A DNA stretch of 63,973 nt, counting the filler, from Stramenopiles sp. TOSAG23-6 (taxonomy: Eukaryota), in NCBI GenBank assembly GCA_900128565.1. It is 3 parts of 3 records of this genome, joined end to end, with 100 filler letters (N's around TTAATTAATTAA, not from the genome) between each part and the next. Parts side by side here need not be neighbours in the genome. Positions count along the whole stretch, not along the records: positions 1 to 23,040 come from LT636010.1; positions 23,141 to 45,882 come from LT636011.1; positions 45,983 to 63,973 come from LT636069.1. One strand, given 5' to 3'. The position numbers and the translations under genes were made by a program. How positions within the stretch are numbered: position 1 is the stretch's first letter; the number at the start of each line of letters is the position of its first letter. The notes under the pieces are model-generated. The model searched no databases. It was not told the origin of the DNA and saw only the letters and a list, made by a program, of their open reading frames with translations. Positions 1-63,973 of the stretch are shown here, piece by piece.

Positions 1-968
1 AAAANGANGANGANGAAAAAAAAGAAGAAAAAGAAGAAGAAAGGAGACACAGAGACAGAAGCAACAGACGAGGAAACACCAGAAGCTGACAACGCTGTTG
101 CAACTGAAGAAACCCCAGAGGACGGCACAGAAGACAACGCTGTTGCAACTGAAGAAACCCCAGAGGACGATACAGAAGTTAAAGAAGAAACTAGAAGATT
201 TCGTTTCAGACAACTTAGCCCTAACCCTACAAGATTTCGTTTTAGACACAAAATACAAAGCCAACAAAATTTGTATTTGGGACTGAGAAATCGAAATATA
301 TCTAAAACTGGATGTGCAGATGTATGTTTTATTATTTTTTTTTTGAATTTTGATTTTGATTTTTTTTTTCATACGAAATTTTGTACCTAACAATTGTTTT
401 TTTACTCAATTTTTTTTTTTTGAAATATTTTTCCAAAATATATGGTCTTGCACCAACTGTAAAAGCTGACACTCCTCAACCTCCAACTCATTTCACAGAT
501 TTTTCATGTCAAACATTTTGTGTTATAAAAGATCTATTTTGTCAAGATCAAAGATTTGTGAAGTTTTCGCCAATGTACATGTATGTTTTATTTTTTTTTT
601 TTTTACCGAAAAAAAAAATCGAATTTATTTTTCGTACGAAATTTTGTACCTAACAATTTTTTTTAGATTTTTTTTTAAATATTTTTCCAAAATACATTGA
701 ACTACTCCAAGATATGCATGATCGTGGAATGATTGTTGACGAATCCGTTTATATCGCGATAATGCAACCTTTTATTTGGGATTGTACAGTTTCATCCGTG
801 AGTATCTTGCAAACACTTTTAGAGGATCGAGTTATGAGAGGTGGTGAAGCTACTGCTGATATATATCGATGTGTTATATTAGGTCATCAAAATATTGGCG
901 ATGAGGAAAGTGCAAATGAATTAATTAAAGCAATGGAAAATCAAGGAATGTGTTACCATTCAAGATGA
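1..968 (+). CDS. 5'-truncated protein with acidic N-terminal repeat and C-terminal PPR-like repeats; exons <1-321, 444-580, 698-968
   Basis: Frame 1 is open from the window start. Removing 322-443 and 581-697 gives ..SKTGCAD|GLAPT..KFSPMYI|ELLQDMHDRGM.. The C-terminus (IELLQDMHDRGMIVDESVYIAIM; IYRCVILGHQNIGDEESANELIKAMENQG) resembles PPR motifs. Confidence 0.6.
88..169 (+). repeat. Coding direct repeat, two copies of ~37 nt with period 45 (DNAVATEETPED)
   Basis: GACAACGCTGTTGCAACTGAAGAAACCCCAGAGGACG at 88 and 133. Confidence 0.9.
322..443 (+). other. Non-canonical repeat intron copy 1 (GT..TAT, 122 nt, phase 0)
   Basis: GAT|GTATGTTTT..TTTCATACGAAATTTTGTACCTAAC..GAAATATTTTTCCAAAATATAT|GGT; removal keeps the frame. 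Confidence 0.8.
581..697 (+). other. Non-canonical repeat intron copy 2 (GT..CAT, 117 nt, phase 2)
   Basis: TAC AT|GTATGTTTT..TTTCGTACGAAATTTTGTACCTAAC..CCAAAATACAT|T GAA; joins ORF 381 frame to ORF 714 frame. Confidence 0.85.
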
Positions 969-1019
969 ATAAACAAATTGAAAATAAACCAATTTTTATG
1001 ATGTATACTTCTTTATCGT

Positions 1020-4000
1020 TTACTTTTTCTTTATTGGGATACATTCTTCTCTGATCCAATATTTTGGTGATATTTCTTTTGCAAATCTTGAAACTTTTGC
1101 AAAATTCCCATTTTCATCCTTTAACACAAAAGTCGCATAAAACTCCTCCCGAGCTCTCGTCAATGCAACAAAAGCTAACCTTCGTTCTTCCTGAACATGA
1201 GTTGTAGAAAAATATGTCATTTTGTTTTCATTTTTTAATTTTTTTTAATTTTTTTTAATCTTTTGTTACGAAAACAAATTTTAATTTAAAAAAAAAAAAA
1301 AAATTAAAAACAACTTAATTCGAAATTGAAAACGTACATCAGTAATTGTATTTTGCATTATATTCAAATCATCTGCAAGAGTTTCAATTGTCGCAAAATT
1401 ACGTTGTGGTACTTTCCAATGCATACCCCAACGAACTCCATTGGTAAGTGATGAACTCGCAACCTTTGCTGATTTATATGCATTTTGTATCGGTGTCAAG
1501 ATCTCTTCATGTTGCTCAATTAAGGGTATTATTCTTTCATTGAAACGCATTAGAAATACAACTGGCCATTCTAAACCCTTTGCTTGGTGAATAGTTGACA
1601 CTACGACAGCATCAGCTCTTGTTTTGATACCATGTTTACTATGCTTCTCCATTTGTCTTCTCTGTAATACTGACAGTATACATCGACGGAGATTTTCACT
1701 TCCTTTACTTTTATTTTCTGTATTTGTTTCAAATTTGAGATCGATTTCATAGGCTAAAATATCTTCTTTCAAAACTGAAATATTATGTCTTTTTGTTTGC
1801 TCTGTTTTTTTATTTATTCGTAAATAGTCTAAATATCCTGTTTGTTGTAGTATAAAATTAATAATTTCACTTGGTTTCATGTCCACAATTTCTTTACGAA
1901 TCTTTTTAATGTCTCGACAAAGATTTTTTAGAGATTTTTTTTGATCTGAATTTAATTTTGGTATTATATTTTCGTCCTCTCTAGAATTTTGTCCGTCATT
2001 TGCGGCAAGACAAAAGACTTCCCATGCAGAGAGTTCAGGATCTGACTGCCATATTTTTTGTAATTCCTTTCGAGTTTTATGTCGTATACCCGTTGTTTTA
2101 ATGCCAAGTACACGAAATAATGAACTATTAAAATCAGATTCGTCATGTGATGAAAAAGGATTTGTCTTTGAGAAAGAATTGTTCATTCTCATAGTGAGTA
2201 CATCACACCAAGCGAGAATATGGATTATGAAAAAATATTAAAAAAAAAAACCTAAATTTGTTAGGTACAAAATTTCGTACGAAAAAAAATCTAATTTCGA
2301 AATTGAAATGAAAACGTAAATCCTTTACTTCTGGTGTAGCATAAGCATCACCAGAGACATGCTCTGCCGTATTTAACGTAGGAATATTTAACTTTTTAAT
2401 TGCTACTTCGACCATTTTTGCTAGTCTTTTCGTTCGGGCTAAAACACAAATATCACGAAATCGCCTGCCTCGCTCTGACCAATGGTGCCGTATATTTGAT
2501 GCGATACGGGACACTTCATGATGAATATTTAAACATGGTAATAAATGTAATTTACTACCATTGGCGTTTGAAGTCCAAATATTCTTCTGTTCCCTGCCAA
2601 AAAACGCATAAATTGGAATCCTACTAGAATATCCTATATTTTCTATACTTTTATTATTTTCTATATTTTTATTTTTCATCAGAATTGGCCCATTTTTACT
2701 AGGGTTAGTGCTAACTAATTGTTGTAAAACTCCTGTTGAATCTTTAGAATCTTTAGAATGTTTAGAATGTTTAAGATCTTTAGAACATTTATAATCGTTA
2801 TGTTGAATAAGAGAAAATGCTGCTTTGACAATCGTTTTTGTTGATCTAAAATTTCGTTTTAGTGTTAATATTTGAGTGGTGGGGAAAATATCTTGAAATA
2901 AAACAAAAGCACGTGCAGAAGACCCACGAAAACTGTATATTTGTTGATCATCATCTCCAACCACCGTAATAGCAAGTGATTTTTCACATAATAGTTGTAT
3001 TAAATCAATTTGTTGTTGACTAGCATGTATTTTGGAAAAATATTTCAAAAAACAATTGTAAAAATCGTTAGGTATAAAATTTCGTACGAAACAAAAATCG
3101 AATTTGAAAAACAATAAAACATATATCTTGAAACTCATCTACTAAAAAGTGTGTGAATTTTTTTCTAATATTTTTTAATATAGTATTTGCATTCGTTTTG
3201 AGCAACATCAAACACATCGGAATAATATCAGCGAAATCAACTAAATTTTTTTCTTGGAGATTTTTTTCATACATTTTGTATATTTCAAAAAATTCACTAA
3301 CAGCAGCACCAGATTTTTGCTTTTCTTTTTTACCACTATCCAGGCTATATTGCAACGGCGTCAAACTATTGATATATTCCGAAACCAAGCACGGTCGGTG
3401 CAATCTTTGTTTACACATTTTGATAAATTTCATACAAATTCCCACAGATTTTTCTACTACGGGATCTTTTTGACTATTATTTTTTTCAGTTTTACATTCC
3501 GTACCAAATTCCGTACCATTTGATATTTCTGTGTCTACGAAATCTTTTTCAATTTGATCAACTTTATTCAAAATTCTTAGATTAGTACTATCTAATGCCT
3601 GTATTGCTCCAAAATTATCACTATGGTGTATTTTATATTGTTTATAACATTCTCTAATTATTTTTTTCTGCTCTTCGGGATTGACCACTTTTAGCTCATT
3701 GGATGACCTACAGCGACCCGTGGCACCAACGTTTCTTTTTAGAATGCGAAGGCAAAATCCATGGAAAGTACAAACCTGTAAAGTTCGAATTGATTCACTT
3801 CGAAATACTTGACTCACTCGTTCTCGTATTTCATTTGCGGCCTTGCGAGTAAATGTCACAACACATATATTTTCAGCTTTTATACCTGATTGAAGCATGT
3901 TGATGATACGACAAGTCAAAGTTAATGTTTTACCTGCACCAGCAGAAGCGATAATAGCTAGGGGTCGATCAAAGGAAGCAGTGACTGCCTTTCGCTGATC

Positions 4001-4648
4001 CTGTGTCAGGCGCGCCATATATTTCTTATCCGAGGAGGCTACCAAAGAACCCAAGAGTTGATTTGAAAAAAGATTGGCAACATTAAGAGGTTCAATCGAA
4101 GACGTTGGAGTTTCGATGTTGTTTTCGTTTTGTTTGTTTGCACATGTTGCAGAAGTTTTTGTGCTTGAAGAATGCGGGTTTGAATTCAACTTTGTGATAG
4201 GTTTGGCGGACTTTGGTGTTTTGTATGTTAATAAAGTACTATTTTGTTGATGAGAGTGTGAATTACCCCGATTGCTAAGAAAAGTGTCCCACATACTTAC
4301 ATTATTTGTTTTAGTAAATCTAGATCTTCTATTTGCATCACTAGAAATCTTTTTTGTTGTTGCTGGATTCAAAGTATTCTGATTGAGATCAGAACGATGC
4401 TTACTATCGGAACTTTGGCGGGGGACAGATGTTTTCAGCGATTTCGAGAGATGTGTCGACGAAGAGGAATATCCCCGCTTTCGTTGATCAAAACCTCTCA
4501 CACAACTACGATTTCTCTTCCTTCGAGACTTCAAGTCGTTCTTGATTTCATAAGGTCGTGGAGGCAGGACCTTTGGGCGAAACCAATTAAACTTGTTCGG
4601 CATTCCCAATAAAAACTTGCCAAATCTGAAATCTGAGATTGGGGCCAA
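1020..4648 (-). CDS. SF1A UvrD/PcrA/Srs2-type ATP-dependent DNA helicase; exons ~4648(ATG 4603)-3125, 3024-2320, 2219-1338, 1196-1020
   Basis: Motifs LTQDQ, ASAGAGKT, TFTRKAA, TFHGF, DEFQD, VGDDDQQIYSFRGS, L.RNFRS, EVKDILAW, STIHQAKGLEW and EERRLAFVALTRA are spread over four ORFs that fuse in frame when three repeat introns are removed. The start codon is uncertain. Confidence 0.92.
1197..1337 (-). other. Non-canonical intron copy 3, degenerate (GT..CAT, 141 nt, phase 0)
   Basis: ACT GAT|GTACGTTTTCAATTTCGAA..TTTTCGTAAC..CATATTTTTCTACAACTCAT|GTT CAG GAA GAA CGA; gives ITD|VQEERRL. Confidence 0.8.
2220..2319 (-). other. Non-canonical intron copy 4 (TT..CAT, 100 nt, phase 0)
   Basis: AAG GAT|TTACGTTTTCATTTCAATTTCG..TACCTAAC..TTTTTTCATAATCCAT|ATT CTC GCT TGG; restores UvrD motif EVKD|ILAW. 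Confidence 0.88.
3025..3124 (-). other. Non-canonical intron copy 5 (AT..CAT, 100 nt, phase 0)
   Basis: CAA GAT|ATATGTTTT..TACCTAAC..CCAAAATACAT|GCT AGT CAA; restores Walker B region DEFQD|ASQQQ. Confidence 0.88.
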
Positions 4649-4756
4649 GCTTTGTTCGAACGAGTCGCCCTGTGTCTGCTGCTGTCATTTTTTTTTGTTA
4701 TTTGGGATCTTGTTTTATTTTTTTGCAGTAAAAAGTTTGAAAATAAATTTATTTTA

Positions 4757-7700
4757 TTAAGGAAGTGGATGAGAATTAAATTCTTCTTTTTTTAACATTT
4801 CCTTTCTTTCTCGTAGCTGAGCAAAATAATCACTATAGTAGTCACTATAATAGTCTGCATAATAATTTGAATAGTGCATGGTTGTATACATTCGTCTCTG
4901 TGAGTGATGGCATTTATCACAAAATTTCTGCTCTTTTTGACACAAATAACAATAATGTTTTTCTGTCGCATTTGAACCGAGTGTGTAAAGCAAAGTAGGT
5001 GTGAGTGTGTGTGTCAATGCCCTTGTCAAAGAATGTGTCAAAGTTATAGTCATTGAGCTGTGCAATGCATTTGGTAACATTTGGTTAATTATCTTTGGAA
5101 TTGAATATGAAAGAGATTGTGAAAGACTGTGTCCCAGTCCATAAGCAATCCGATTTGAAAGAAAATTTGTTAAAGGCAGGCGAATCTTACTTGTAACAGT
5201 AGCAAGTAGATTTGGAGTTATCGTATTTATTAGGCTTTCGCTAACAATTCCGCCAAGCATAGTAGTGAGTTTATGGACCAATTCCTTTAGCATTGGTTTA
5301 CAAGTTGCAGATAAACAAACGGCTTCTGATTTTTCAACCATTAGAAGTTGTCGGCCGCCACTGCGAATATTATTCTCACTGTTTGCAAATGAAAGATCAG
5401 TATTCTGTTCATTCTTATTCTTAATATTTTGTAATGCTTTTTCGGTATACTTCGTGAATGTGCGATCGAGTTTATCGGACAGGTGTTTAATACTGGCACT
5501 GCTCTTAGCGTCTCTTTCGGTAACAATGTCGGAAGATAGAGTAGCAAAATTTCGTATTCTTCGTTTACTCGAACCTTTCGCCATATTATTTCGCTCTTCA
5601 AGTTGTATGAGAATTGTATCAATTTCTGCATGTGTCATTATTTCATGTCCAATTACGTCATCTTTTTTTCTGTTGGGTTGTACATTCTTAAATTTAGGAA
5701 TATTATATTTATGATGCAATCTGTCATTCCATTCGAGAAATGAAAATGCCTTACCATTTCTATCATCTCCATTAATTGTTGAAACTTTAGAATCCTCGCC
5801 ATTTGTATCTGAATTTACATTAAACCATGATGAAACATCACTGTCTAAAATATTCCTCTGGTTTTCTTCCAGTTTTGTAAGTTTTTCCAGTATATTTCGC
5901 ATAGCGTAACTTTGTGCTTTGGCCAAATGAAGATTTTTTTCCTCAATGAAGGAAGTTCCTAAATCTTTCAATGCTGTAGAATAAGTAATATTTCTGTGTT
6001 TCTGTAGCAAATCTGTTACTACTTTGCCTTTCTCACCTCCAAGTCGATTACCATAATCTTCTTCTAATGATGTATCGATGCTTTCCTTGCCTTGTTGTTT
6101 TGCATTCGCAAAGATATTATCTATGGCATTAAAATACCCTTCGTGTAATGCTTTTGAGTTGTTTGCAAAATGTGACGCTTCATGAAGCCTGCCTTGACTG
6201 TGTAAATTAAGTAAATGCTTCAGTTTTGTTTGCTGATATTTTCTTAATTTTGACCTCTGTATCTCTTGCCACCTGGCAGATGCATTTGCAGAGAATGATG
6301 AAATAGGCAAATCATGACGTTCGAATCTATTTTGAATTGATTTGACGTATTCCTTTGCAAACATTGATGCACTAGCTGAACTACGAGATTTATTTTGTAG
6401 TATATATTCCGTGCCATTATTACCCGTAGAAGTATACAAATGAGTTATATTAGTTGTTTCGGTTATATTGTGTAAATTATTGAAATTATTAGAAGCAAAT
6501 AACTTTTCGCCACCATCATCGCCAAAATAACGATCCTGATGATAACCATTCCTTTTTGCTGCTGATAAAAGCTTTGCATTGGCCTCACGAAATCGTATAA
6601 ATTGTGGGTCACCATAACCACGACCAGTACCAAATGCAGTATTTTTTGATAACTCTGTCCAATTTCCAATGCTACTTCCAACGACAATATTCCTCATTCC
6701 CCAGACTTCTACACTTCGCCAACCAAACGGAGATTCTGCTTTTAGTGTTCGAATACGAATCCTTGAAGTTCCCCGTTTTGCTTTTGGAAAGTCTACTTCC
6801 AGCCACATTTTATCAAATTCTCTAACTTTGATTTCGGTAACTTTTTCCCATGTTTTGCCTTTCAATGAAGCAGATCGTTCAATGATGTGATGTGCATCAG
6901 CAATCTTTCTTCCAAACTTTCGAGTGTTTGGAATTTTCTTGTACTCTGTAGATAAAACAGCGATGTCATCATTTGCTTTCTTGCTGCATTTTTCAAGACA
7001 CAGTCCTGCTTTCCATGCAGCTTTAGATTGTGTACCCTTCACTTTGATAGATTTAGCTTTTGTAAGCATACACTTACTAGTACAATTCTTTCTTTTTTTA
7101 TCTAATTCGTTGACCTTTTTTGTCCATTCTGCCACAATACTTTTTGTCGCCGAGTTTTCTAATTGTTTTTGTGGTAGTCGAGTTTTGTCTGGGGGTCTAA
7201 ATACTCTTAAACGCATTCGTGTTACATTTTGAGGTTTTGTCCAAGATAATTCAAACCAGTGCGGTGGTTTAGTCGCGGCTGCAATCCAACCATACACAGC
7301 AGGTTTTCGGCTACCATGGTCCATCATTTTTTCTATGCCAACAGCTAGTTTAGCAGGAGTGTTGAAATTATCTAACATTTCCCAGAATGTATCCTTAGAA
7401 TGTAAGAATTGTCGGAGTAGTTCTGGCACATGAATATCCATTGGTCCACCCACACCGTACAATTTACGCATCCCATGCCAGAACTTGATTAGCTTATTAT
7501 GGCCTAGGTTCATTCCACCCGTAGCTTCTGAATCGAACCATTTTGTATCTTTAGTAAGTTTATGCTCTTTCTTTGTCCCAATTTCACTAGATAATACATT
7601 GGCCATTCGAGCCACTTGAAGAATATTATTCAATTGTGGCGATGTTATCCCGGAACCAGAGCTCGATGCGGTTACAGTAGCAGCGACAGAAATAAGAGCT

Positions 7701-10879: not shown

Positions 10880-10986
10880 TAGAAAACAAAGATCACTAAA
10901 ATTAGAAATGAAAACATGAATGAACTGCTGCTGTCACGCTGTTTGTTCTTCTTTCACTTGAATGTGATTGCTCCTCTGAACTTCGT

Positions 10987-10998
10987 GTACCGGGTAAC
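10987..10998 (+). promoter_or_regulatory. Candidate promoter element GTACCGGGTAAC (second copy at 19094-19105)
   Basis: Exact 12-mer found in two short divergent intergenic regions. Confidence 0.35.
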
Positions 10999-11137
10999 AT
11001 TTTTTTTGAAAAATTCAACTCGCAACTCGCTCTACAAAAAGACAGCGGAGAGAGAGAGTTTGTTTCTCTCTAATTCTCTGAACTGTGTTGACAGGAGGAC
11101 AGTTTTTGTTTTCACGTGTGTTATATTAATAGATTAT

Positions 11138-17974: not shown

Positions 17975-18313
17975 ATGTTTTTATTATTTATATTTAGTAC
18001 CTCACTGGTACGATATTAATTTTAAAAATAAATTTGACTCCATTACTTTTATGCATTTGTTAAATTTTCTCAATGATGTAATATTTTTCAATTGATTTTA
18101 AAAAATACTTCAAATTCTTCGAAACTAATTCTTCCATCCACTTTCGACTAAAGATACGACACGAAATATAATATAATTACTCCTGTGAAGAAACAAAAAA
18201 AGAAATTTGTTTTCTACGTATAATAATTCATTTTGGAGACCTTACTACAATTTAAGTAAAATAATGTTTTTATATCATTTTAAAAATTGAAAATATTCAA
18301 AGTATTTTTTTAT

Positions 18314-23140: not shown

Positions 23141-23141
23141 A

Positions 23142-45982: not shown

Positions 45983-46038
45983 AATTTTGTACCTAACAAA
46001 TTTAAGTTTTTTTTTTGAAATATTTTTCCAAAATACAT
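45983..46038 (+). other. Non-canonical intron copy 13 (3' part, ..CAT, phase 1)
   Basis: AATTTTGTACCTAAC..GAAATATTTTTCCAAAATACAT|TA CTT GGT GGA directly after the gap. Confidence 0.85.
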
Positions 46039-47466: not shown

Positions 47467-47849
47467 TACAGTGACATGTTTACTGTGATATCAAGATCAA
47501 TGATCATCTCTCTTCAACAAATCTTAGAAATCTCTAGAAATTTATCACATTGCCGATTTCAGAGAGTTTTGACCTGCTCCCATGGCACAAACATGTTTCT
47601 CCTTCAGGGTGAAAAAAAAAAAAATGTGAAGCGCGTTACTTTTGAGAACGTTACATCTGAAAAGAATCTAAACTCCATCATCTTGTAGTCTCAGCGCTTA
47701 CGATTCAACTTTAAGTTTTGTAATTGTCTCAATTTCATTTTTGTGATTGTATAGAGTTACTGATTTAAACGTGTTGAGTATAGCAAGTAACCATACGGTA
47801 CCGAATAATAGTTTACATAGTACGAAATAAGGGTCGCCTTGTGTAAAAG

Positions 47850-53800: not shown

Positions 53801-56800
53801 TGCTCTTGATGCTGCCGAGATTCTAGCAGTTGGAGAATCATCTTCCAATGCATTCGAAATTTCCACAGAGCTTATTTCTCAACTTTTGTGGGAATTTCTA
53901 TCAACTAAAGAATTTAGAAAATCACAGGGTATTGTAATTGATGGTTTATTATTCACCCTTTCATCTAGCCAGGAAGGATCAGAATACCCCAACTTACGCA
54001 CTGCAGCTGGGATTCCAGTGGAGGAAGATTTACCCCTTGCATCAAAAGTGTCATTAGCATCATCATTGGTCACATTATTTGGTCCGTCTGAATACGGGGG
54101 ACTTTCTACAGTAGCTTGCCAGGCAACCAATGAGGTTCTCGAAGCCCGCTTAGAAGAAATTCTTTTAAAGATTAGTGGAACATCTGTTGATAACAATATA
54201 GAACCAACAGAGGATGGAGCAAATGTAGAAATAAATGCAGAGGTAAAGGTAGAACATAGTGATGTTAGTCCTAACGAGCCTTCGCCAGAACAAATCGCAT
54301 TAAAAGCTAGAGTCGACCGTGTTAAAACATCAGGTGCTCTTGCGTTGTACGAAAAAGATAGAACAACAATTGAGTCTCTTTTAGGTAGTTCCAAGGAAAA
54401 TGTAGCAGACGGTGGGACTGAAAGTAATGCCAATAGCAACTCAAATACATCTAATACCTTAAATTTTATACACATTGACATTAATCAATCGCAAGAGGAA
54501 TGCGCGACAAATACAAGCGAGCAGCTTGGTTTAAAAGACGCACCAGAGGATGATGGGTTTGATCCTGTTCCATTTCCACGTGACTTACAAATTATTCAAA
54601 AACCATCTGGGCGATTGAAAAGACCTCATGTGAAGAACTTTTGTGTAATGCCTTTTCCTGAAGGAGACCTTGGTGATATTGTTGGAGAATATGGAACGAT
54701 TGGATCATCCTGGAAGATAAATGGGGATGGTAATTGTCAAGGTCCAGGTGGAGAATTTAAATTTGAACGGAAAAGCAAAACACTTCTTGAAGATTCTGCT
54801 AAAGGAAAAAAAATAGAGATACAATGGGGAACACTTCAGGCGACGGCTATTGTAGATACTTCAGACGACAAAATATATCCATTGATCATTGAAAACGACA
54901 ATTCAAAAACGCAGACAACAGATAATACGGAAAATGGAGATACACCAAAGGATGCTGAAGCTGATGACGAAAATGAAAATGAAACAGACGAAAAGTCTAC
55001 TGAACTGCTCATAAAAAATAATAATCCTACACGGTGGGTGATTCCACCAAATTCTGAGTTAAAGCTGCAAATCCGATTTGGCGCAGGCCGAACAGGAAAG
55101 TATGATACGACCCTGGGATTTGAAATTGTTGGTGGTCAAAAACAATATAATTTACCAGTGCGCGGAACTTGTCAAATTCCAAGCATCAATTCTGATCCTC
55201 GTAATGTTTTTATGAATAGAATAAAGTCGGCCCCCCCTGAAAGAGTATCTCGCAAATTTGTGATTTCGAGAAATTGTTATGAATTTGGACCTTTGCTTGC
55301 AGGAAAGGATATCGAGGCTTGTATTGTGAAAGGTGCAGCTGAGTCGGGAAGCGGGAAACGTCCTGGTCGTAATGCTGAGTTCTTTCGAGTATCTAATAAT
55401 TCAATGTTTTCGGCAAAAGTAGTTTTTGCTTTTTCCGGAACGACTTCACACCACCACCACCACGGTAAAGAACACCATCATCACAAAGATCAGCATCATG
55501 AAAATAAAGAGAATGGCGAAGAAGAAGATGTGTCATGTCCTTTTGTCGTTGATCCCAAAGAACTTGAGCTTCCTGTTGGGGAGACAAAAGATATTGTAGT
55601 TTGGGCGTTTCCTCAGAAATGTCATACTTATAAGGATACACTAATATGTTGCGTTGATGATAATCATACTCCTGTCACATTCGATGTGTCATGTATTGGT
55701 ACTAGTCCAGATATAGCTCTAGATGGAGATTGGTGGAAACCGACAAAACAAAAAGAGGAAATAGAAACAGGCTCGGCTGAAGGTGAATTAGCTGAGGGTG
55801 AAGAACCCAATAAAGTTGAAGTTGAAGTTGAAACTGAAGACCCAGCAGTAAAAGCAGCACGAGAAGCTAGGGAAGAGGCTTTGTTGAAAGGTCCCCCATT
55901 GTTAGACTTTGATAGACTTCTTTTAGATCGGCGAGAATTTAGAAAATTCGTGGTAAAAAATGTTTGTACTATTTCAGTAGCTTGGAAATTAGATTTGCGT
56001 GCATTCGAGGAACACCCTGAATTCGAAATAACACCAACGTCGGGGATTTTGCGCCCACGAGATTCGACGATTGTTTCCGTCAGTTTTTCTGCAATAGAAG
56101 AAAAGTTTATCGATGACCCACTTAACATTAAAGTGATTTATTCTGATAATGAAGGTGGACTTAATATCGAAAATGAGGAAAATTCTGAAAATACCCGTGT
56201 GAAGGAAACTGATGTTGCAGTTCGCGCTGAAGCTTATAAAATTTCTACTAACTTCAAACTTGAAGATGAAGAAGGAAATGCATTGCAAACGCTGGATTTC
56301 GGTGCCAATTGTGTTGGGGTGCCAAAGCAAAAGTCATTCAAATTAGGAAATGATGGTAAGTATGATGTGAAATTTCAATTTAAGTTTAGAAGAAATTCTA
56401 CAAAGTCTGTATTTTCTATTGATCCAATGAGTATTGTTGTAAAACCTGGTACAGATGAAGATATTAATGTCACGTTCCTTTCAAAAAGAGAAGTCCGATT
56501 CTTTGATTGTAAAGATATTTTATGCAAAGTCATTGAAGTGAAAACAGAGGAAATTGTTGAGGACTTTGATATTGCTGTGAGTGCTCAGTCTGTGTTTTCG
56601 AAATTCCGCCTCCAACCTATGCGTGGTATTAACTTTGGTGCTCTAAAATTTGGAAATTCTAGTTCAAGGAAGTTTGAATTGCGAAATGACGGCGTCTTTC
56701 CGTTTCGTTACAAAGTAATTCAATGGGAAAATAAAGTCCCGGAAGTGAATGAAAATTTCCCAAATGAAAACAAAAAAGATGAAAATGGCGAGCCTATACC

Positions 56801-59800
56801 AATAGCAGTAGACGGCGAAAATGTCCTAAAATGTGGACAATTTACCATTGAACCAGCTTGTGGTACAATCATGCCTAACGGTATCGTTTTGTTTGAGGCT
56901 TCATTTACTGCTGAAGGTTCTCAAGTATTTAATGAGGAATTTCTCATAGATACTTCAAATCGTGATCCATCTGTTGGAATCGAAGCACTGCGGTATAATA
57001 TGTCGGGTGAAAGTTGTGTTCCTGCTCTTGAAAACAAAAACTTCGAGTCAATATTTGAGGAACAAGAAGTCATGCGAAGTATTGGACCTAACGATACTTT
57101 ACGCCGTGCATTTGCTGAAGAAGATAACACATTTACATTTGGGGCTATTGTGCCACAAATGAATCCAGAAGGTGCAAAAGAAAGATTTAAAATCACAAAC
57201 CCAAGTAAGGTTCGTGCCATTATTAGGTTCAGTACAACCTCCACAGATGATAAAGAAGACAATATATTCAGTGTTCAACCAGAGATGGAAGAAATACCAC
57301 CTCATGAACATCGATACATCACAGTTTATTTTAAACCAAAAAAGATCCAGCATTATTCTGCAACTTTCAAAGCACTTGTTGATGATAGTGAATACAATGC
57401 GGAGAATGGGTTGCTCGAAGTGCAACTAACAGGCCAAGGTACCATGCCATGCATCACTATAATGGATCCAATGACACGGTCGGCTAACGGTAGAGTATTA
57501 CTTGACTTTAACAAATTACAAATAGGTAAATCACGAACTAGATCAATCACCGTGAGAAATGACGGTATCGTCCCATGCACTGTTCGACTTTCTGTTTCCG
57601 GAAAATCAAAACAAATGTTTGCATTGAAAAATTCAATATCTTCGACGTTGACGTTAGGAACCAAGGCGGAAGAAAAGGTTGACTTGGTATTCGCACCAAC
57701 TGCTAACCAAGACACACCATTTGCTGCATCTCTCAACGTTGATGTAATGTCGAATAAATTTGACAGCGAAGTTGTTGATCTTTTAGGAAGTAGTTTTGCT
57801 GAAGATATTTCATTTAGAAATTTGCCCGAGAAGAAAGAAGATGAACTTATTTTTGGTGAACAGGATATGGATCTCGAAACTGAAGGAATTCAACAAAGCT
57901 TTACTATTGTCAATCATCAGAGTAAACCTGTTAAATTTGAATGGGCTAATCACCGAGATTTTTCTTTCTTACCTATTTCGGGTCATCTATCCGCACATGG
58001 GTCAAAAGAAATCATAGGAACATTTTCATGCCAAGCCGAGGAGAATAAAGTTATGTATGAGAAGGAGGACATTGCTCTGACTATTAATTCTATACAATAT
58101 AATGGGAGTACTGTTCCAGAAACTGTTTGGGACTCATCACAGATAGCTGTAACATTTGATGAGGAGGGTAAAGAAGTTACAAATGCCATTGCTGAACCAG
58201 AGCACGAAATCATTGGAGAAGCAAAAGTTGTAATGCTTGCATGTACTGCCCGAGCAGATAAAGTCGGTTATGAATGTGATTGCCCAAAATCTATTTCTTT
58301 TAGAGATACGTTGATGTTTCAAAAGCGCAACTACAAATTTGTCTTGAAAAATCCAACTCAAACAGTTCTTAAATTTGATTGGCAGCTGGATGATGAAAGT
58401 GAGGGTATGGCAGGGCGCCCGCTAGCTAATGTTACTGGTGGTATTACCGCTCCCAACCCCTTTGAATTTGAACCATCGAATGGTTCTATAATGCCGGGTG
58501 ATTCACAAACAATTTGTTTATCATTTAAGCCCATTGAAGCTGATGTATTTAGATATAACTGTCTTTGCGCAATGGAAGGTCTCAGTAAGGATTATAAACC
58601 TTTAAATATTACTGTGATTGGAAGAGCACAACGACCTGTTTGTCATTTTGAGATATCTCAAAGTCATTATCTTGCAGTACGAGGGGCAGACCTGCCTGGA
58701 CCTGATGGTGTACGGGGTAAACCTCTCGACCCATCAGTAAAAATTGTTGAGATTGATAGCTTAGGCACAAATGTACGTAATACTAAACGTTTTTATGTTA
58801 CAAATCCAATGGATTCTAATTATGAATTCTCATGGGAGCCAGTTGGAGGTGCGACATCAATGTTTAGATGTATTGCAGCACAAGGTCTTGTCTTATCAGG
58901 AAAGCGGTTTGAGATGGCGTTTGAATATACACCAATTAATGTTGGAACACACGAAAGTTTCTGGAGGTTTTCAATTCCACAGCGCAACGTTTCAACCATA
59001 TTTTTATTAGTTGGTAAAGTCGGAGAGCCACGTGTTCGATTTGATATGCCGAGTATCAACTTTAAGCATGTCTTACTGCGTTCAAGATCTACCGAGACAT
59101 TGAATATTATTAATGATGAACACATCCCTTTTGCATACAGTTTTGATTTATCTCAGTTTGAAGGGCGAGATGAAAAACCTGCTATTCGAATTCAGCCTGC
59201 TCGTGGGGTTGTTCCTCCTAATGGTAAAACCCCAATACAGATAATGTTTGTTCCAACAAATGAAAAACATTCTAACTTCAATCTTTCATGCTCGATCAAG
59301 AATAAACCTACTCAGCTCAGTGTCAATGTAAAAGGACAGGGATATGCTGTACACGACAGAGCAACGTTGATAACATCACAAAATCAATCAGGAAATGAAT
59401 TATCTCGCAGAGGTATCAATTATGTTGATTTTGGTGATGTAACTATGAATGCGATACAAACTAAAGATATTGTTCTCACAAACACAGGAGAGTTCAACTT
59501 TGAATTCTCCTGGAGTCGATTAAAGCACCCAATGTTGACAATCGAACCTGCATTTGGTACAGTTCGCAAAGGAGCAAGGGTCCCATGTAAGCTAACATTT
59601 AATCCAAAGACTGAGTGTTCACTGAAGCACATCAAATTGACATGTACAGTGGCAGGATCAAGTTCTTATGTCCTTCAAATTGATGGGAGAGGAACAAAAG
59701 CCGCTGTACACTTTTCTCAGACGGAGTTTGACTTTGGACCAATATTCGTCGCCCCACCTGGGTCGGGAGCTGTAATACAAACACGAACAGAAACACTTCG

Positions 59801-62216
59801 CATTGTCAATAATGAAATGGACTCCGATATGACGATAGATTGTCTTTATGAGAAAAAACCTCATCTTGATGTTCAATGTGATACACAAGTCTTGTCACCA
59901 CATCAAAGTATGGAAGTCCCAATTATATTTACACCAAAAGAATGCAAATCATATACTGAGGCTGTCGTATTTGAGATCAACTCATTATATACAGTGAACT
60001 GCATCGTTCGTGCAGAGGGGACTTCTATGAGACTAGAACTGGCTGACCCATCAATGAGGCACATTGCATTTGGATCTCCAACACCTGGGAATGATGTGGA
60101 ACGACAAATTAGAATTGTCAATCGTTCCAAAGTAGCTACAAAGTTTGAATTACTTGAACCCAACGGAAAAGATGGTGTAGGTTTACTCACCTCGAAGAAT
60201 ATATCATTTTATCCATTTGGTACTCAAACACTGAAGCCTCGAGAGAGTTGTGCCGTTGAGCTACGGTTTTCGCCAATTGGAAGTATGCCACCATTTAATG
60301 AAGTACTCCAAATGCGACAAGAAGATGGACGCACCCTTACTTTATGCACTGTCGCAGGCGCTTGCCTTGGTGTGGATGCACGGTTAGACACAGAATGTCT
60401 CCCATTTGGCGCAGTTTGCTCTCAAAGTTTTATTAAGCGTAAAGTTGTACTACAAAACAGTGGTGACGTTGGGACAAAATACAGATGGAATTCCTTATTT
60501 AAGCCACACTTTAGCATAGAACCCAAAGAAGGTTACCTCGACTCACATTCACAAGTTATATTTGAAATTACGTTTCATCCACAGAAAGTATCAGACGACA
60601 TTCGCAACGAAAGTCCCCAAATAATGTTGGAGGGTTCACAGCCCATTGGATTGACTCTTACCGGTTCATGTGTGCCTCAGCCCGAGCAAGAAGAATTAAA
60701 TTTTGAAAGCCGTGTACGAGAGACACAAGTTAAAACTGTAACTATATCAAATCCAACAAAAATGGAATGGAATTTATGTGCGGCATTTGAAAATGAATAT
60801 TGGAGTGGTCTTGATGTATTAACTATTCCCGCTGGATCCGAGGGTCAATATGAAGTTAAATATACACCATTGACGATGACACCAAACGTCAAGGATGAAG
60901 ACGGTAATGAGGTAGCTGGTGCAGTTGATGATGATGCAAAACATAATGGTTTATTATTTTTTGCATTGCCAAATGGAAAGACTGCCTCGTGGAAGCTAAT
61001 TGGGGTTTCAACAAAACCGGTGGTTGATGAGTTGCCCGAAGGAACAAGACTCAGTACACCTTGCAAAGAAACACTTATTATAGCGCTTCCAGTGAGAAAT
61101 TGGCTCAAAGAGGCCCAGAAATTTACAGTAGAGATAAAGGTAGCAGATGAAGATGAAAAAGAAGCTACATTTCTTCGTGGGGCGCAAACTGTAGTGTTGC
61201 CAGCAATGGCAAAGCGTCAGTATAAATTAAGTTATACTCCATGGACGGTAAGCGATACTCGGACAACTGTTACATTTAGGAATGAGAAAACTGGAGAATA
61301 TTTCTTTTATGAATTTACATTAAGATCACTTTCCTCAGAAGAGGCAAATTTCATACTTCGTCTAGGATCAATATGCCGTGTTCCAACAACACAGCTAATC
61401 ACAGTAGAAAACCCATTACCACCAACAACAGTTGTAAATCTTCCTGAAGATTTTTGGACATGTGATGATTCAAATGTGCGCGTGAAGGCAGTGGGAGAAT
61501 TATCTGGCCGACCCGAAGGCACATTCGAAGTTGAGTATAGGCCTTTAGTTGTAGGGGTAAAACAAGCTACGCTCATGCTGAATCTAGGATCTGTATTAGG
61601 CAGCTTCAAATATGATCTTGAGTTGATTGCAACCGAAGGAGCTGCTGAATCAAGCCTACACTTCAATGTCCCACTTGGTGAATCATCAAAGAAAATCTTT
61701 CGATTCAAATCATTTTGTCCCGAGGCAGCAAGGTACTCATGTAGCGTAACTGACCCACTATTCTTTGAAGTAGTTGATGGAGTGGATGTTGCTGCGGCTA
61801 CTAGTTGGAATGGAATAGAAGGAACCGTGGAAGTTAACTTTGAACCTGAACGGCTTGGAAGCATTCAAGATAAATTGATCGTTAAGTCTCCCACAGGGGG
61901 AGAGTTTATGTGTCTCCTTAATGGTGAGTGCACGCCTCCTTTACCTCGTGGACCGGTTGACATGAAACCAGGAGGAAGTGATTCTGTTGTCTTCAAAAAT
62001 GTTTTTAATGAAGAGCATACGTTTACATTCTCAGTTGACAATGATGCATTTTCTGTGGACGTCAGCGAACAAAAAATACCTAGACATACTGAAGCAACAG
62101 TGAAAGTTTCTCAGGCAGTAGGTACCCCTGCAGATGCATGTGGGAAACTATTAATTACATGTTCTGAGATCGCTGGATTGCCTCCTTGGGTTGTATATAT
62201 TGGAGGAAAAAATTAA
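47850..62216 (+). CDS. HYDIN: HYDIN, axonemal central-pair protein (4788 aa), intronless
   Basis: LFRPEPSQIVF..YEP, CVTEREKFIVPI, GHVVGPTFHFD, many ASH/Ig-like modules (F.I.P..G.I.P), PVEFYSLDFD.QY..EE, central P-loop GAPCSGKT, RPVCHFE; size typical of HYDIN. Confidence 0.95.
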   Translation: MSFSHRPSHRSNQVSDRKLRTSGLKEMMEGLRPTNHVPEIVEFLHIGDYSDSKKSSVLINKPLFRPEPSQIVFEQYEPFQTYQSILYMRNNDNVPRRIKISFPDSPFFQVSAPRPAQKGQKLDKGGKVAAGMELCFTITFKPQSKVAYTYDLICVTEREKFIVPIICVGTRPCLDFPDEFRFDIGPVKFAQTKSFVARNVGQLADRFKLQTSPPFSVHCDSTHVNVGESVQVSVTFTPPDASDYEEELMITYESNPDVKIYMKLVGGANSVDVSVDKNVVDLGSQYISLQAHSTLRIQNRTDVPVKFEWKSFGNHRDEVEERRRLEAEISAMEDIEYQALNNRVFDADDDSDALSDDEGVPIAKRREISALTRKYKNLRKQLADDPLLFANDNFSIEPMTSEIWANSDLEVTINFLPSNAASYQTVAFLDITGRDNRLPVKLCGVGIGPKAAFSFDVLDVGDIFLGSVHNYQLELINRGDIAASWSLQVPDSPFDQNFSFEPKRGELATGETAEINVTFSSNILGEFSEHYIFALQGSQQTLSVHFKGHVVGPTFHFDTDSIKFGRISYEFLNSKVLSLFNTSEIPMTFNLRVPQDGKNLDKEFDILPSSGTIQPGDRKKIQIDFISNTVKVYNYFLTVDVEGVGDALLSLPITASCGVPNVILEKEEIPYGTSYLRYKYEKSITLTNKSKDLRARYEVLPQDKHSVAIAKYFAMHNKGVIEAGETLEVPLYLVCQKLGKIKMPIYIRISGSENPPLVPMVFALGVGPIITSNISEMKWGNVPCLKDAEKTLVLRNTCPIVAPFQAYIENARSKFRVNVGKGQLQPGQNVKLTVTALLDDIVNTSDELIIAVSEGDALTIPLLARGVGTTMHCDEALEVVDFSHQFTNNECKRRFLLENKGRRPQMLTWVNLTHKERIVEMRRIQAENKRSDGKGKKKSKTNKKQIDINSIVPCFTISPDQIELKPRTACYFTFIGKSLEAGPVEEMLRLESKVGKDQTIHKVFNTCFKANFIDPLLEMVENLDFSYTFSPSVPLSTQSKAITLKNVSSLELKFVLRTQPPFKVDVYEVELEPGSSTTVNVEFNPGYKSDRLSRKVEGKITVVYRDHPQKDSIAVNGEINFPNLDFDFSQINFGCILNDTTKSMTMTISNNSKIDTTYSWAFFENESDCRAVSTSRKPYIPINQVFDILPIRSFLKPGQSEKIEFVMYGHTNRSFKGKCVCEVEGGPDYDMDLIGEASSVSYKVDKLELDFGDLLHNRAEELEFNISNTGKVPFSFRVSTDLISRPGIVEVIPTSGRIFGKDKAKVVVRFCPVLPETIDEKLVLEVAHFEPVEIPVRGIGVYSSVSLSLPQTITEEWTDLMESAREYLLAAEESLSENSENLSETKRYKNENVDTKVPIVSTKPEEESTDQKNGDGPTDETTKPEDTVVAETSEATEIDTKNKTETDEIQLDTKETEIVESNEGGVKKDNKGNTTDNLDTDVAKSDDAKTDNEKTEKSNENAEKNADADAIPVDTPMPLSEKKMQKNEKIKPPQALMLVDVEREARRIQYLQHLQDQLEKNFSSIMTKQQNESVANQLFEDKKDDDDDQLSVVVPPTPPSVAPASVLGMGLIASNVEPYVIAEHYADFGNVITGSSRKKTFRITNRGKVPVSFCINNRKGSCGFTVEPEKVNRLPEGMSVDFTIKFKARKKLGPVEIEVPIEVKGGPSVMLSLRAIVTIPDLVIRPNVIDFRKVLVGHCKEIYVTLFNPAPVPTEWVLKIPTSGPMTKASSRFKLIPASGTLAPGQKEQVMIVFTPSSEQTYLYKMSFQLNSNKKRKTLTCKGIGKEFKFKFFPRMLKMEPMKPFEPPRDTIVTARNDCDYPVEFYSLDFDTQYKDEENMLISKGEFDEHGTLFIEPRQPGKQLELENVINIYDDADDTESKLPSKPFDRSSAANILIVGAPCSGKTSLAKHLSEKHGLTYMSLSNLLETARNTQTSSWQFIKAALDAAEILAVGESSSNAFEISTELISQLLWEFLSTKEFRKSQGIVIDGLLFTLSSSQEGSEYPNLRTAAGIPVEEDLPLASKVSLASSLVTLFGPSEYGGLSTVACQATNEVLEARLEEILLKISGTSVDNNIEPTEDGANVEINAEVKVEHSDVSPNEPSPEQIALKARVDRVKTSGALALYEKDRTTIESLLGSSKENVADGGTESNANSNSNTSNTLNFIHIDINQSQEECATNTSEQLGLKDAPEDDGFDPVPFPRDLQIIQKPSGRLKRPHVKNFCVMPFPEGDLGDIVGEYGTIGSSWKINGDGNCQGPGGEFKFERKSKTLLEDSAKGKKIEIQWGTLQATAIVDTSDDKIYPLIIENDNSKTQTTDNTENGDTPKDAEADDENENETDEKSTELLIKNNNPTRWVIPPNSELKLQIRFGAGRTGKYDTTLGFEIVGGQKQYNLPVRGTCQIPSINSDPRNVFMNRIKSAPPERVSRKFVISRNCYEFGPLLAGKDIEACIVKGAAESGSGKRPGRNAEFFRVSNNSMFSAKVVFAFSGTTSHHHHHGKEHHHHKDQHHENKENGEEEDVSCPFVVDPKELELPVGETKDIVVWAFPQKCHTYKDTLICCVDDNHTPVTFDVSCIGTSPDIALDGDWWKPTKQKEEIETGSAEGELAEGEEPNKVEVEVETEDPAVKAAREAREEALLKGPPLLDFDRLLLDRREFRKFVVKNVCTISVAWKLDLRAFEEHPEFEITPTSGILRPRDSTIVSVSFSAIEEKFIDDPLNIKVIYSDNEGGLNIENEENSENTRVKETDVAVRAEAYKISTNFKLEDEEGNALQTLDFGANCVGVPKQKSFKLGNDGKYDVKFQFKFRRNSTKSVFSIDPMSIVVKPGTDEDINVTFLSKREVRFFDCKDILCKVIEVKTEEIVEDFDIAVSAQSVFSKFRLQPMRGINFGALKFGNSSSRKFELRNDGVFPFRYKVIQWENKVPEVNENFPNENKKDENGEPIPIAVDGENVLKCGQFTIEPACGTIMPNGIVLFEASFTAEGSQVFNEEFLIDTSNRDPSVGIEALRYNMSGESCVPALENKNFESIFEEQEVMRSIGPNDTLRRAFAEEDNTFTFGAIVPQMNPEGAKERFKITNPSKVRAIIRFSTTSTDDKEDNIFSVQPEMEEIPPHEHRYITVYFKPKKIQHYSATFKALVDDSEYNAENGLLEVQLTGQGTMPCITIMDPMTRSANGRVLLDFNKLQIGKSRTRSITVRNDGIVPCTVRLSVSGKSKQMFALKNSISSTLTLGTKAEEKVDLVFAPTANQDTPFAASLNVDVMSNKFDSEVVDLLGSSFAEDISFRNLPEKKEDELIFGEQDMDLETEGIQQSFTIVNHQSKPVKFEWANHRDFSFLPISGHLSAHGSKEIIGTFSCQAEENKVMYEKEDIALTINSIQYNGSTVPETVWDSSQIAVTFDEEGKEVTNAIAEPEHEIIGEAKVVMLACTARADKVGYECDCPKSISFRDTLMFQKRNYKFVLKNPTQTVLKFDWQLDDESEGMAGRPLANVTGGITAPNPFEFEPSNGSIMPGDSQTICLSFKPIEADVFRYNCLCAMEGLSKDYKPLNITVIGRAQRPVCHFEISQSHYLAVRGADLPGPDGVRGKPLDPSVKIVEIDSLGTNVRNTKRFYVTNPMDSNYEFSWEPVGGATSMFRCIAAQGLVLSGKRFEMAFEYTPINVGTHESFWRFSIPQRNVSTIFLLVGKVGEPRVRFDMPSINFKHVLLRSRSTETLNIINDEHIPFAYSFDLSQFEGRDEKPAIRIQPARGVVPPNGKTPIQIMFVPTNEKHSNFNLSCSIKNKPTQLSVNVKGQGYAVHDRATLITSQNQSGNELSRRGINYVDFGDVTMNAIQTKDIVLTNTGEFNFEFSWSRLKHPMLTIEPAFGTVRKGARVPCKLTFNPKTECSLKHIKLTCTVAGSSSYVLQIDGRGTKAAVHFSQTEFDFGPIFVAPPGSGAVIQTRTETLRIVNNEMDSDMTIDCLYEKKPHLDVQCDTQVLSPHQSMEVPIIFTPKECKSYTEAVVFEINSLYTVNCIVRAEGTSMRLELADPSMRHIAFGSPTPGNDVERQIRIVNRSKVATKFELLEPNGKDGVGLLTSKNISFYPFGTQTLKPRESCAVELRFSPIGSMPPFNEVLQMRQEDGRTLTLCTVAGACLGVDARLDTECLPFGAVCSQSFIKRKVVLQNSGDVGTKYRWNSLFKPHFSIEPKEGYLDSHSQVIFEITFHPQKVSDDIRNESPQIMLEGSQPIGLTLTGSCVPQPEQEELNFESRVRETQVKTVTISNPTKMEWNLCAAFENEYWSGLDVLTIPAGSEGQYEVKYTPLTMTPNVKDEDGNEVAGAVDDDAKHNGLLFFALPNGKTASWKLIGVSTKPVVDELPEGTRLSTPCKETLIIALPVRNWLKEAQKFTVEIKVADEDEKEATFLRGAQTVVLPAMAKRQYKLSYTPWTVSDTRTTVTFRNEKTGEYFFYEFTLRSLSSEEANFILRLGSICRVPTTQLITVENPLPPTTVVNLPEDFWTCDDSNVRVKAVGELSGRPEGTFEVEYRPLVVGVKQATLMLNLGSVLGSFKYDLELIATEGAAESSLHFNVPLGESSKKIFRFKSFCPEAARYSCSVTDPLFFEVVDGVDVAAATSWNGIEGTVEVNFEPERLGSIQDKLIVKSPTGGEFMCLLNGECTPPLPRGPVDMKPGGSDSVVFKNVFNEEHTFTFSVDNDAFSVDVSEQKIPRHTEATVKVSQAVGTPADACGKLLITCSEIAGLPPWVVYIGGKN

Positions 62217-62253: not shown

Positions 62254-63917
62254 TCATCCGAACTCTCGAATTAAAAATTCCTCATAAAATTGTCGAACGT
62301 CAGCAAGCATTTTACCAGCAGATTCTTCATTATAATTCGGTGCGAGTATATGTATTTTGGAAAAATATTAAAAAAAATATATCGTTAGGTACAAAATTTC
62401 GTACGAAAAAAAATTTCGAATTTGAAAAAAAGTAAAACATACATTCGGAATCCAATGTGCATTAGATACTTCAATTCGAAGAAAATACAAACCCGTAGGA
62501 TGAAGCAACTGTTTAAATGCTGAGTGCTCTATTTCATTTTTTACACACTCAACATCATCCCATTTATACGAGAGATCTACTTCAAGGTCTAAATATTGTC
62601 TAATCTCAATTTCAAATTTACGAGCCAATTGGAGAGTCATTTGTCTTTGAGAATTTATATCATCAGTGGAAGAGATTTCAAAATTCTGTGAGTTCTGCTT
62701 AATCGTTTCAACGGATTTTTCATTTTCAATAAAAGTCACACTATCAGTAGTTTGTTTTATTGTTTGTGTTTTCGCAGTTGTTGTACTTTTGTTCGAATAG
62801 AACGAAAATGAAAATCGAATATGAGCCAAAAATGGATATTTTTTTTTCGCCGCTGCGCTTCCAGAAGATGTGTTAGGATTGTTTGAAGACAAAGACACTA
62901 CACCTGATAGTGCTAATGGCGAATCTGCTTTTGAATACTCTGGAAATTGTAGTATATTTAATCCTTGAGCAGCAGCACATCTATATAATTTCTTCATATA
63001 ATCTGCAATTTGACCACAGGACGCGGCTAGCCACTGAACCTCTAAATGGAAGCATTTGTCATAAAAAAATTGGGAATCCATTTTTAGTAAAAGCCATTCA
63101 TACCTAAAATATGGCCCAGATGAATCATTCGCACCTTTTGTAGATTTATCACTATTTAAAGCATTAATCTTACTATTTGAACTTGAACTAGAAAACGATT
63201 TCGACCGCAAAGGAATTTTTAAAAGTCGCGATTGTTTGTCTCCTGTCCAAAGTTCAGTTGGCGAAGGGGTCCATCCCATAATAGTTTGATAAAACTGTGA
63301 AAATCTGTCATTTGCTTTCTTTACAAAATTCGCTAGTTGTACCGCCTCGTTTGCGATTTCATTTGCCTTATGAGCAGCTACTGCAGCATTCTGAGCAATT
63401 GTAATAGGAATGTCAAATATAGACGAAGAAGATTCAATATTTCGTTTTGAATCATCTATTTTTACTGTATTTGTAGTTTGATTTACATTGTTCTTTGTTC
63501 TATACCGGCTAACAGGAATTATAGCATGATGCTGTCTCATTGTGCGCTTCCTCTCTTGAATTGTAACATCCCAATTTTCCCATTGTCCTGAAACAATTTC
63601 ATCTATATAAGTCCAATTTGTGTCCTCTGCACTATCCTCCTTAAAATAAGTGTTATATGCAACATATGAATGTATTTTGGAAAAATATTTCAAAAAAAAA
63701 AAACTAAGATTTGTTAGGTACAAAATTTCGTATGAAAAAAAAAATTGAAAAAAAATAAAACATACATTTACACAAGGAGACCAAATATTATAGGAATAAG
63801 GGACAGACTCTATAAAATCTTCTTTCGTCTTTAGGGTATAAATAGCACCACGAAGTTTACTTGGAATTTCTGATGAATCATAAATTAATTGTTGAATCCG
63901 TTTCCCAGTGGAGACCC
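62254..63917 (-). CDS. DEPDC5: DEPDC5/Iml1 (GATOR1/SEACIT subunit) C-terminal part; exons 63917-63766, 63669-62443, 62349-62254; 5' part beyond window
   Basis: W.S.G.RIQ.L.YD, NWTYIDEIVSG, YEW......F....FHLEVQWLAAS..I......R.A...GL.I..FP, LLHPTGLYF..I....WIPN resemble the Iml1/DEPDC5 C-terminal domains. Confidence 0.75.
62350..62442 (-). other. Non-canonical intron copy 14 (GT..CAT, 93 nt, phase 0)
   Basis: CCG AAT|GTATGTTTT..TTTCGTACGAAATTTTGTACCTAAC..CCAAAATACAT|ATA CTC GCA. Confidence 0.85.
63670..63765 (-). other. Non-canonical intron copy 15 (GT..CAT, 96 nt, phase 0)
   Basis: GTA AAT|GTATGTTTT..TTTCATACGAAATTTTGTACCTAAC..CCAAAATACAT|TCA TAT; joins two open frames. Confidence 0.87.
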
Positions 63918-63973
63918 AAGTATTTTGGAAAAATATTTCAAAAAAAAAAAACTTAAATTTGTTAGGTACAAAA
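63918..63973 (-). other. Non-canonical intron copy 16 (3' part, ends ..AAAATACTT, phase 1)
   Basis: TTTGTACCTAAC..GAAATATTTTTCCAAAATACTT|GG GTC TCC; 5' end is outside the window. Confidence 0.78.

Follow-up and report, generated by a model that had tools for sequence, protein, structure and literature searches.

Introners are short elements that occur in many near-identical copies as introns of unrelated genes, and in Micromonas, Aureococcus and Pelagomonas they come with direct repeats at their borders, short inverted ends and splice signals borne on the element itself. We describe here a family of inserts that resembles them, found in a window (the whole stretch of DNA analysed) of 63,973 nucleotides from Stramenopiles sp. 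TOSAG23-6 (GenBank assembly GCA_900128565.1). The difference lies at the 3' end; in putative Pelagomonas introners the donor is GT or GC and the acceptor is AG "in all cases" (bioRxiv 10.1101/2021.10.25.465678), whereas AG is found at 0/15 visible acceptors here. Amoebophrya A25 and A120 offer a second comparison. Their repeated non-canonical introns lack GT-AG and have direct repeats of 3-5 nt over the boundaries, inverted repeats, hairpin-forming ends of 8-20 nt and no clear terminal dinucleotide signature, and U1 went undetected (PMC7789003). Our inserts share the repetition, the lack of GT-AG, the boundary direct repeats and the marine protist host, but have a U2-like 5' site and branch motif, a uniform AT acceptor and unpaired ends. 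Many non-canonical introns of Fritillaria borealis are said to derive from transposon insertions. Their pattern, as quoted in the Amoebophrya paper, is AG-A(N) (PMC7789003). The second-to-last A is kept there, as here, but those introns have a 5' AG and a variable last base, and ours a 5' GT and a last T. U2-type AT-AC introns, which are isolated and rare, share with the inserts an alternative AT..AC register. Finally, rare GU-AU introns of U12 type have the same terminal dinucleotides (PMC8199999), but those are isolated introns with a U12 consensus, whereas here a whole family shows U2-like signals and a distant branch motif.

The insert family and its AG-less boundaries are real. The best-supported reading, which we hold to be probably correct, is that these are introner-type spliceosomal introns with an AU acceptor. 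Introners themselves are well described, and what is new is most likely this variant of them. An earlier reading of the window from sequence alone (the sequence-only reading) had known of no such GT-AT family. We also found no description of it in the literature searched, whose supplements may hold relevant intron tables, and the accessible parts of the marine stramenopile single-cell genome papers do not mention such introns; GU-AU termini as such, however, are already listed as rare and U12-type (PMC8199999).

Run against the window, an nhmmer profile of the 13 complete copies returns 16 matches and no more, 13 complete and three partial, spread over eight unrelated genes, with none outside genes. 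The sequence-only reading had reported these 16 inserts in eight genes, and its coordinates for the complete copies are all reproduced; the truncated copy in the carboxypeptidase gene is corrected to start at 22958. Complete copies score at E values from 2.4e-17 to 0.007, the weakest being a divergent copy at 1197-1337 without CTAAC, a motif present in 12/13. Median pairwise identity among the copies is 0.76. Across the window, a 22-nt core has 12 matches at up to three mismatches (0.00 expected) and a 19-nt 3' block has 14 (0.14 expected). Three blocks are conserved, namely GTAYGTTTT at the 5' end, a middle block (..TTTCRTACGAAATTTTGTACCTAAC) and ATATTTTTYCAWAAKNYAT at the 3' end, with T-rich stretches of variable length between them; inside the copies, conservation is strongest at GTAYGT and ACCTAAC. 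All 16 copies lie in sense orientation relative to the host gene (p 1.5e-5), which argues for a strand-specific process at the RNA level.

Two subfamilies can be told apart (GTACGTTTTCATTTCAATTTCGAA.. and GTATGTTTTATTTTTT..), with 2220-2319, 33709-33794, 12048-12144, 22565-22664 and 22958-23040 separate from the rest. Upstream of the branch-like motif there are two short palindromes centred on CG, AATTTCGAAATT and TTTCGTACGAAA. The termini of the main subfamily, and of that subfamily only, form short imperfect inverted ends of about 8 nt (GTAT(G)TTTT / AAAATAC). Two of the partial copies adjoin a linker between contigs and the third adjoins the window end; they are cut by assembly, not biology. 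Since contigs end inside copies, the family evidently breaks assemblies.

The YAG of U2-type 3' splice sites is missing from every visible 3' end. As the sequence-only reading had counted, 12 of the 15 are CAT, two TAT and one CTT, so that AT closes 14/15 and AG none. In the complete copies A at -2 and T at -1 are invariant (13/13), and positions -3 to -5 vary. The other end follows the U2 pattern more closely. G is found at position 1 in 11/13 complete copies, T and A at positions 2 and 3 in 13/13, and GT at positions 5-6 in 12/13; judged by their letters, the GTAYGT and ACCTAAC signals are U2-like (GT 11/13, TA at +2/+3 13/13, and CTAAC as the CTRAY branch motif in 12/13). The 5' consensus first proposed, T|GTAYGTTTT, holds for the preceding T in 13/13 copies, but its GT only in 11, as 2220-2319 begins with TT and 3025-3124 with AT. 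ACCTAAC lies 33-53 nt from the 3' end at a variable distance, while the acceptor keeps a constant position behind the conserved 3' block. A rule that takes the first YAT after the branch motif as acceptor was rejected, because AAATAT inside the 3' block comes earlier in most copies.

The dinucleotide AT also precedes 11/13 complete copies, and T precedes all 13 (background AT frequency 0.093; p 3e-10). The register of the boundaries is therefore ambiguous by up to 2 nt, and GT..AT, TG..CA and AT..AC all yield an identical messenger RNA (mRNA) in 11 copies. At 12048-12144, AT..AC is ruled out because CT precedes the copy and an in-frame TAA would arise in its ABCA transporter gene. Provided that homologous positions are cut in every copy, this leaves GT..AT or the equivalent TG..CA. 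The repeated AT looks like a 2-bp target-site duplication. The sequence-only reading had missed this direct repeat and the ambiguity of register, as well as the two copies without a 5' G and the public gene models that force GT-AG (below).

We propose that the inserts belong to a single family of "introners", short transposon-like elements that are non-autonomous and would act as spliceosomal introns. Each copy would supply a 5' splice site (GTAYGTTTT), a branch motif like that of yeast (ACCTAAC) and the conserved 3' block of the copies, ATATTTTTCCAAAATAC. AT would be the target-site duplication, with each copy between two AT dinucleotides, and the removed intron would comprise the element plus the downstream AT duplicate, restoring the coding sequence to the base. 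With such a duplicate as the intron end, the acceptor would be A-U instead of A-G. What the sequence shows is the family, its single orientation, the AT repeat and, at protein level, how exact the excision has to be; we infer that a spliceosome removes the inserts, that branching takes place at ACCTAAC and that the elements transposed. Removal by a spliceosome gives the best fit to the sense-only orientation, to GTAYGT and ACCTAAC, to the T-rich tract and to the exact excision.

Exact removal of the complete copies links the longest upstream and downstream frames in 13/13 cases, where chance would give a third, even though copies of all three lengths modulo 3 are represented; reading through them gives in-frame stops in 12/13. 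These frames and the host-protein alignments support the view that the host genes can encode their proteins only if the inserts are taken out exactly. As with introners, then, 16 similar copies sit as inserts in eight unrelated genes, and removing them restores host frame and protein. Every junction peptide quoted in the sequence-only reading is reproduced, and the comparison with host proteins that it had called for bears the junctions out. Five are collinear with homologues or profiles, four to the residue and the fifth more loosely. In the serine carboxypeptidase, the last residue of exon 1 corresponds to 157 of 4az0_A and the first of exon 2 to 158, with continuous numbering in six PDB chains, and a MAFFT alignment shows no gap within six residues of either junction in 60/60 homologues. 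In the ABCA gene, removal of 12672-12790 gives YEH|ESGI against FERESGI in the homologue P0242, inside an ungapped block of 263 residues, and the junction at 12048-12144 (the first ABCA insert) lies inside an ungapped block of 19 residues with the same homologue. The Pfam profile PF00580 places positions 1-224 on one side of 3025-3124 and 225-270 on the other (224|225). Removing 20738-20832 keeps the ankyrin register, with the LHLAA..G spacing of the protein's other repeats.

Pseudogenisation of the host genes, which the sequence-only reading had named as a possible refutation, is not borne out in ABCA exons 2-3. Compared with other populations, 25/33 coding differences there are third-position changes (p 8e-7, from 40 of 147 differences listed), and on this pattern of substitutions the host genes are live and under purifying selection. 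A scan for GTAYGT..YTAAC found 10 places outside the family, none of them at a frame break between open reading frames (ORFs) of at least 150 amino acids (aa); no frame breaks outside the insert family were seen among ORFs of that size, and short exons were not searched.

Could the inserts be ordinary GT-AG introns that use nearby AG acceptors? The public models of this sequence, P0121 and P0241 (labels GSMAST32.ASY1.ANO1.946.1 and.947.1), treat them as such, and AGs that stay in frame and stop-free with the family donor do exist in 6/13 copies. In 7/13, however, there is none, and for 62350-62442 no GT/GC..AG pair keeps the frame open in the range examined. Forcing GT-AG also corrupts conserved motifs. 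P0121 reads GESY-VFFFKYFSKIH-VPT and VPD-FDLL and continues into the third carboxypeptidase insert, so that GESYGGVY becomes GESYVFFFKYFSKIH, with intron-coded residues in place of part of the motif, and DE after VPD is deleted; P0241 reads YEH-SGI, deleting the E of EHESGI. These changes are contradicted by the 60/60 carboxypeptidase homologues and by P0242. The same residues favour AT over the in-frame AGs 6 nt downstream of 22664 and 3 nt downstream of 12790, because use of either would delete residues kept in 60/60 homologues or in P0242 (two residues in the AG+6 model of 22565-22664). We regard nearby AG acceptors as a very improbable explanation. No more credible, in our view, is that the inserts are cut from the DNA, like the internal eliminated sequences of ciliates, or are never removed at all and mark pseudogenes or assembly artefacts. 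A short flanking direct repeat with short inverted ends does resemble transposon-derived eliminated sequences. Against these possibilities, frame is restored in 13/13 copies, the orientation is sense in 16/16, an independent DNA metagenome (X3) carries the element at the same borders, and the genes use the standard genetic code, have very long intact ORFs and show a third-position bias of polymorphism.

A divergent minor (U12-type) spliceosome, or a reading in the AT..AC register, is harder to dismiss, although we consider it unlikely. Not only can 11/13 copies be written as AT..AC with the same mRNA, but GU-AU is among the rare termini of U12-type introns, whose consensus is given as (A/G)UAUCCUUU and UCCUUAAC (PMC8199999). 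The family's GTATGTTTT agrees with the U12 5' consensus at 7/9 places, ACCTAAC resembles the branch consensus, and 3025-3124 starts with A. Yet the inserts lack the 5' (A/G)TATCCTTT, the family having GTAYGTTTT with GT and not CC at positions 5-6, and the AT..AC register meets the in-frame TAA in the ABCA gene at 12048-12144. U12-type introns have their TCCTTAAC branch site near the 3' end, but the ACCTAAC of the inserts is 33-53 nt away from it. No minor small nuclear RNA and no Rfam match was found in the window, which says little because it spans only 64 kb. Removal from RNA without a spliceosome, with paired ends as proposed for Amoebophrya or for the nonconventional introns of euglenids, could draw on the short imperfect inverted termini of the main subfamily, on a 5' G that is dispensable in two copies, and on direct repeats that overlap the boundaries as in Amoebophrya (PMC7789003). 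The fold of the consensus offers it little. At -0.91 kcal/mol it has five internal pairs, none between the ends, and no covariation, and such unpaired ends argue against the structure-guided route proposed for Amoebophrya. The ends of the second subfamily (GTACGTTTTC../..CATAATCCAT) are not complementary, and the best-conserved internal signals are GTAYGT and ACCTAAC. We accordingly find this route improbable too.

Sequence of the window is present in public runs of three kinds (two small DNA runs, seawater metagenomes and poly(A) metatranscriptomes), of which we compared three RNA runs (X6, X7 and X8) and the DNA metagenome X3 with positions 2900-22899. At 5/5 exon-element borders listed, X3 contig ends beside copies run 4-43 nt into the element, and these borders therefore exist in another population. 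Depth in X3 is 3682-17060 in copy-bearing bins, and 5.4-10.7 in 23/25 copy-free bins (287 and 0 in the other two); the family is thus highly repeated in that sample, although such depth is not assignable to one genome. The ratio of element to exon depth is far lower in two of the RNA runs than in DNA, with 6.5-20.1 in copy bins against about 1-8 in exon bins for X6, and 0-5.75 against about 1-6 for X8. This depletion in two of three RNA runs lends weak support to splicing.

Several observations weigh against introner-type spliceosomal introns with an AU acceptor. In X7, copy bins reach 548-5173 against about 0-6 for exons, and the ratio is no lower than that of DNA. The 15 of 143 joints listed, all of which run from copy to copy, include no RNA contig that spans a copy; the RNA pieces listed cover no junction, and the parts left uncovered are not evidence. 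Contigs in which the 3' end of an element is followed by other exons (one in X6 and five in X7; loose ends include 22414 for X6 and 22416 for X7) imply unspliced copies, or DNA, in the RNA libraries. The RNA check suggested by the sequence-only reading is therefore mixed, with the element depleted in X6 and X8, not depleted in X7, and no bridging contig. That reading's claim of spliceosomal introns with a YAT acceptor keeps its support from exact removal, sense orientation and U2-like signals, but no RNA junction has been seen. Within the inserts themselves, the partial copy at 63918-63973 ends in CTT, and an AG about 10 nt past the branch motif would have to be skipped in four copies. A 5' G, which U2-type splicing normally needs, is missing from 2220-2319 and 3025-3124. 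In the latter its absence is secure, as the boundary splits helicase motif II (DEFQD|AS) and the UvrD profile runs on from one side to the other. In the former, an upstream in-frame GTAAAG at -9 may be the donor, with the same AT acceptor; our donor-acceptor scan paired it with AG acceptors only. Lastly, of the hallmarks of a transposon we see the AT repeat (11/13) and the imperfect inverted ends in one subfamily, but found neither a transposase nor an empty site, and no terminal inverted repeat of any length, so that mobility is putative.

Were this reading correct, a transposon's target-site duplication, and not the AG rule, could dictate the acceptor. It would also offer a natural experiment on site choice in the second catalytic step, as the penultimate A is retained, the final G gives way to another base and a nearby in-frame AG is passed over at two or more sites. 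In spliceosome structures from after the second step, the penultimate A is paired to the branch adenosine, and the final G to the first one, which would lend meaning to a retained A beside an altered last base. A broader scenario, in which the major spliceosome has shifted from AG to AU for essentially all introns and an AT-targeting DNA transposon has flooded the genome with thousands of them, each with the duplicated target site as acceptor, is possible but rather doubtful; GT-AT would then have taken the place of GT-AG in this lineage. There is a practical consequence now, as the public gene models give wrong proteins; with 16 copies in 64 kb, mis-prediction probably affects a large part of the lineage's proteome. 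P0121 (21723-22955) and P0241 (12510-17974) also contain further short canonical "introns" inside exons, all contradicted by homologues. An extra 48-nt deletion in the carboxypeptidase model removes the conserved LHYWY, and the ABCA model has two extra deletions.

The copies are distributed among the host genes as follows. On the plus strand, the unnamed ORF at 1-966 holds two complete copies, at 322-443 (122 nt, GT..TAT, preceded by AT, phase 0, frame restored; E 6.9e-13) and 581-697 (117 nt, GT..CAT, phase 2). The TACAT just before the latter is identical to the five bases at its end, and its AG at -31 is unusable in frame with the family donor. Three complete copies interrupt a UvrD-like helicase gene on the minus strand. 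The third insert of that gene is the divergent copy at 1197-1337 (141 nt, GTACGT..CAT), where residue 2 of the downstream exon aligns to PcrA 598 (1pjr_A) and an in-frame AG at +6 may be an alternative acceptor. The other two are 100 nt each, 2220-2319 (TT..CAT), whose removal is required because its length is not a multiple of three, and 3025-3124 (AT..CAT), with the best score (E 2.4e-17). The ABCA transporter gene on the plus strand has the copies at 12048-12144 (97 nt, GTACGT..CAT, preceded by CT, phase 1) and 12672-12790 (119 nt, GTATGT..CAT, with the in-frame AG 3 nt downstream), and the ankyrin-repeat gene on the minus strand that at 20738-20832 (95 nt, GTATGT..CAT, TALH|LAA). Relative to this ankyrin gene, X3 shows a 24-nt deletion at 20233 and an 18-nt insertion at 21426, both multiples of three.

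In the S10 serine carboxypeptidase gene (plus strand) lie 22314-22414 (101 nt, GTATTT..CAT, GESYGGVY|VP), 22565-22664 (100 nt, GTACGT..TAT, VPD|DEF, with the in-frame AG 6 nt downstream) and the 5' part at 22958-23040 (GTACGT.., preceded by AT, cut by the contig end; E 2e-11). The closest named homologues of this enzyme are algal and stramenopile sequences, all at 67% identity or less. A fibronectin type III gene on the minus strand carries 33709-33794 (86 nt, GTACGT..CAT, LLE|W, preceded by GT, phase 1). A 3' part at 45983-46038 (plus strand, ..ACAT, from the contig start; E 1e-08) lies upstream of a dihydrouridine synthase exon. Finally, a minus-strand gene with a weak match to the C-terminus of DEPDC5 holds 62350-62442 (93 nt, GTATGT..CAT) and 63670-63765 (96 nt, GTATGT..CAT), the latter being the only copy without an in-frame stop if retained; the 3' part at 63918-63973, also on the minus strand, is cut by the window end (E 1e-06) and is the one whose visible end is not AT.

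Searches beyond the window added no copies. A 20-nt core pattern had no matches in viral contigs or in metagenome contigs, and of 74 metagenome loci found with a looser gapped pattern, none matched the family profile at E 1e-3. The sole exact match to the core in 185,579 prokaryote genomes, at L001 6187-6206, falls in an ordinary ORF of a Bacteroidales metagenome-assembled genome and was dismissed as chance. ABCA exon 2 had no match among proteins of 96-307 aa. Carboxypeptidase exon 1 found P0121 as its sole near-identical match, the next being 65% identical, and the GESY-bearing C-termini of shorter carboxypeptidase matches showed no read-through of a related element.

The window consists of three contigs, joined at 23041-23140 and 45883-45982 by linkers of the form N44-TTAATTAATTAA-N44. 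As these joins are artificial, genes flanking a linker are not neighbours. Its G+C content is 30-42%, and it uses the standard genetic code and is densely packed with genes, some in very long open frames. About 60 isolated single N positions cluster at 40428-45294, in a minus-strand ORF of 1900 aa for which a Pfam search gave no match; they could be ambiguous calls or masking. At 47847-62216 on the plus strand lies one unbroken ORF of 4789 aa, a single exon without an intron. Its product has many Ig domains of HYDIN/CFAP65/ASH type and is a HYDIN-like central-pair protein, and this homologue, together with the gene content, points to a flagellated eukaryote.

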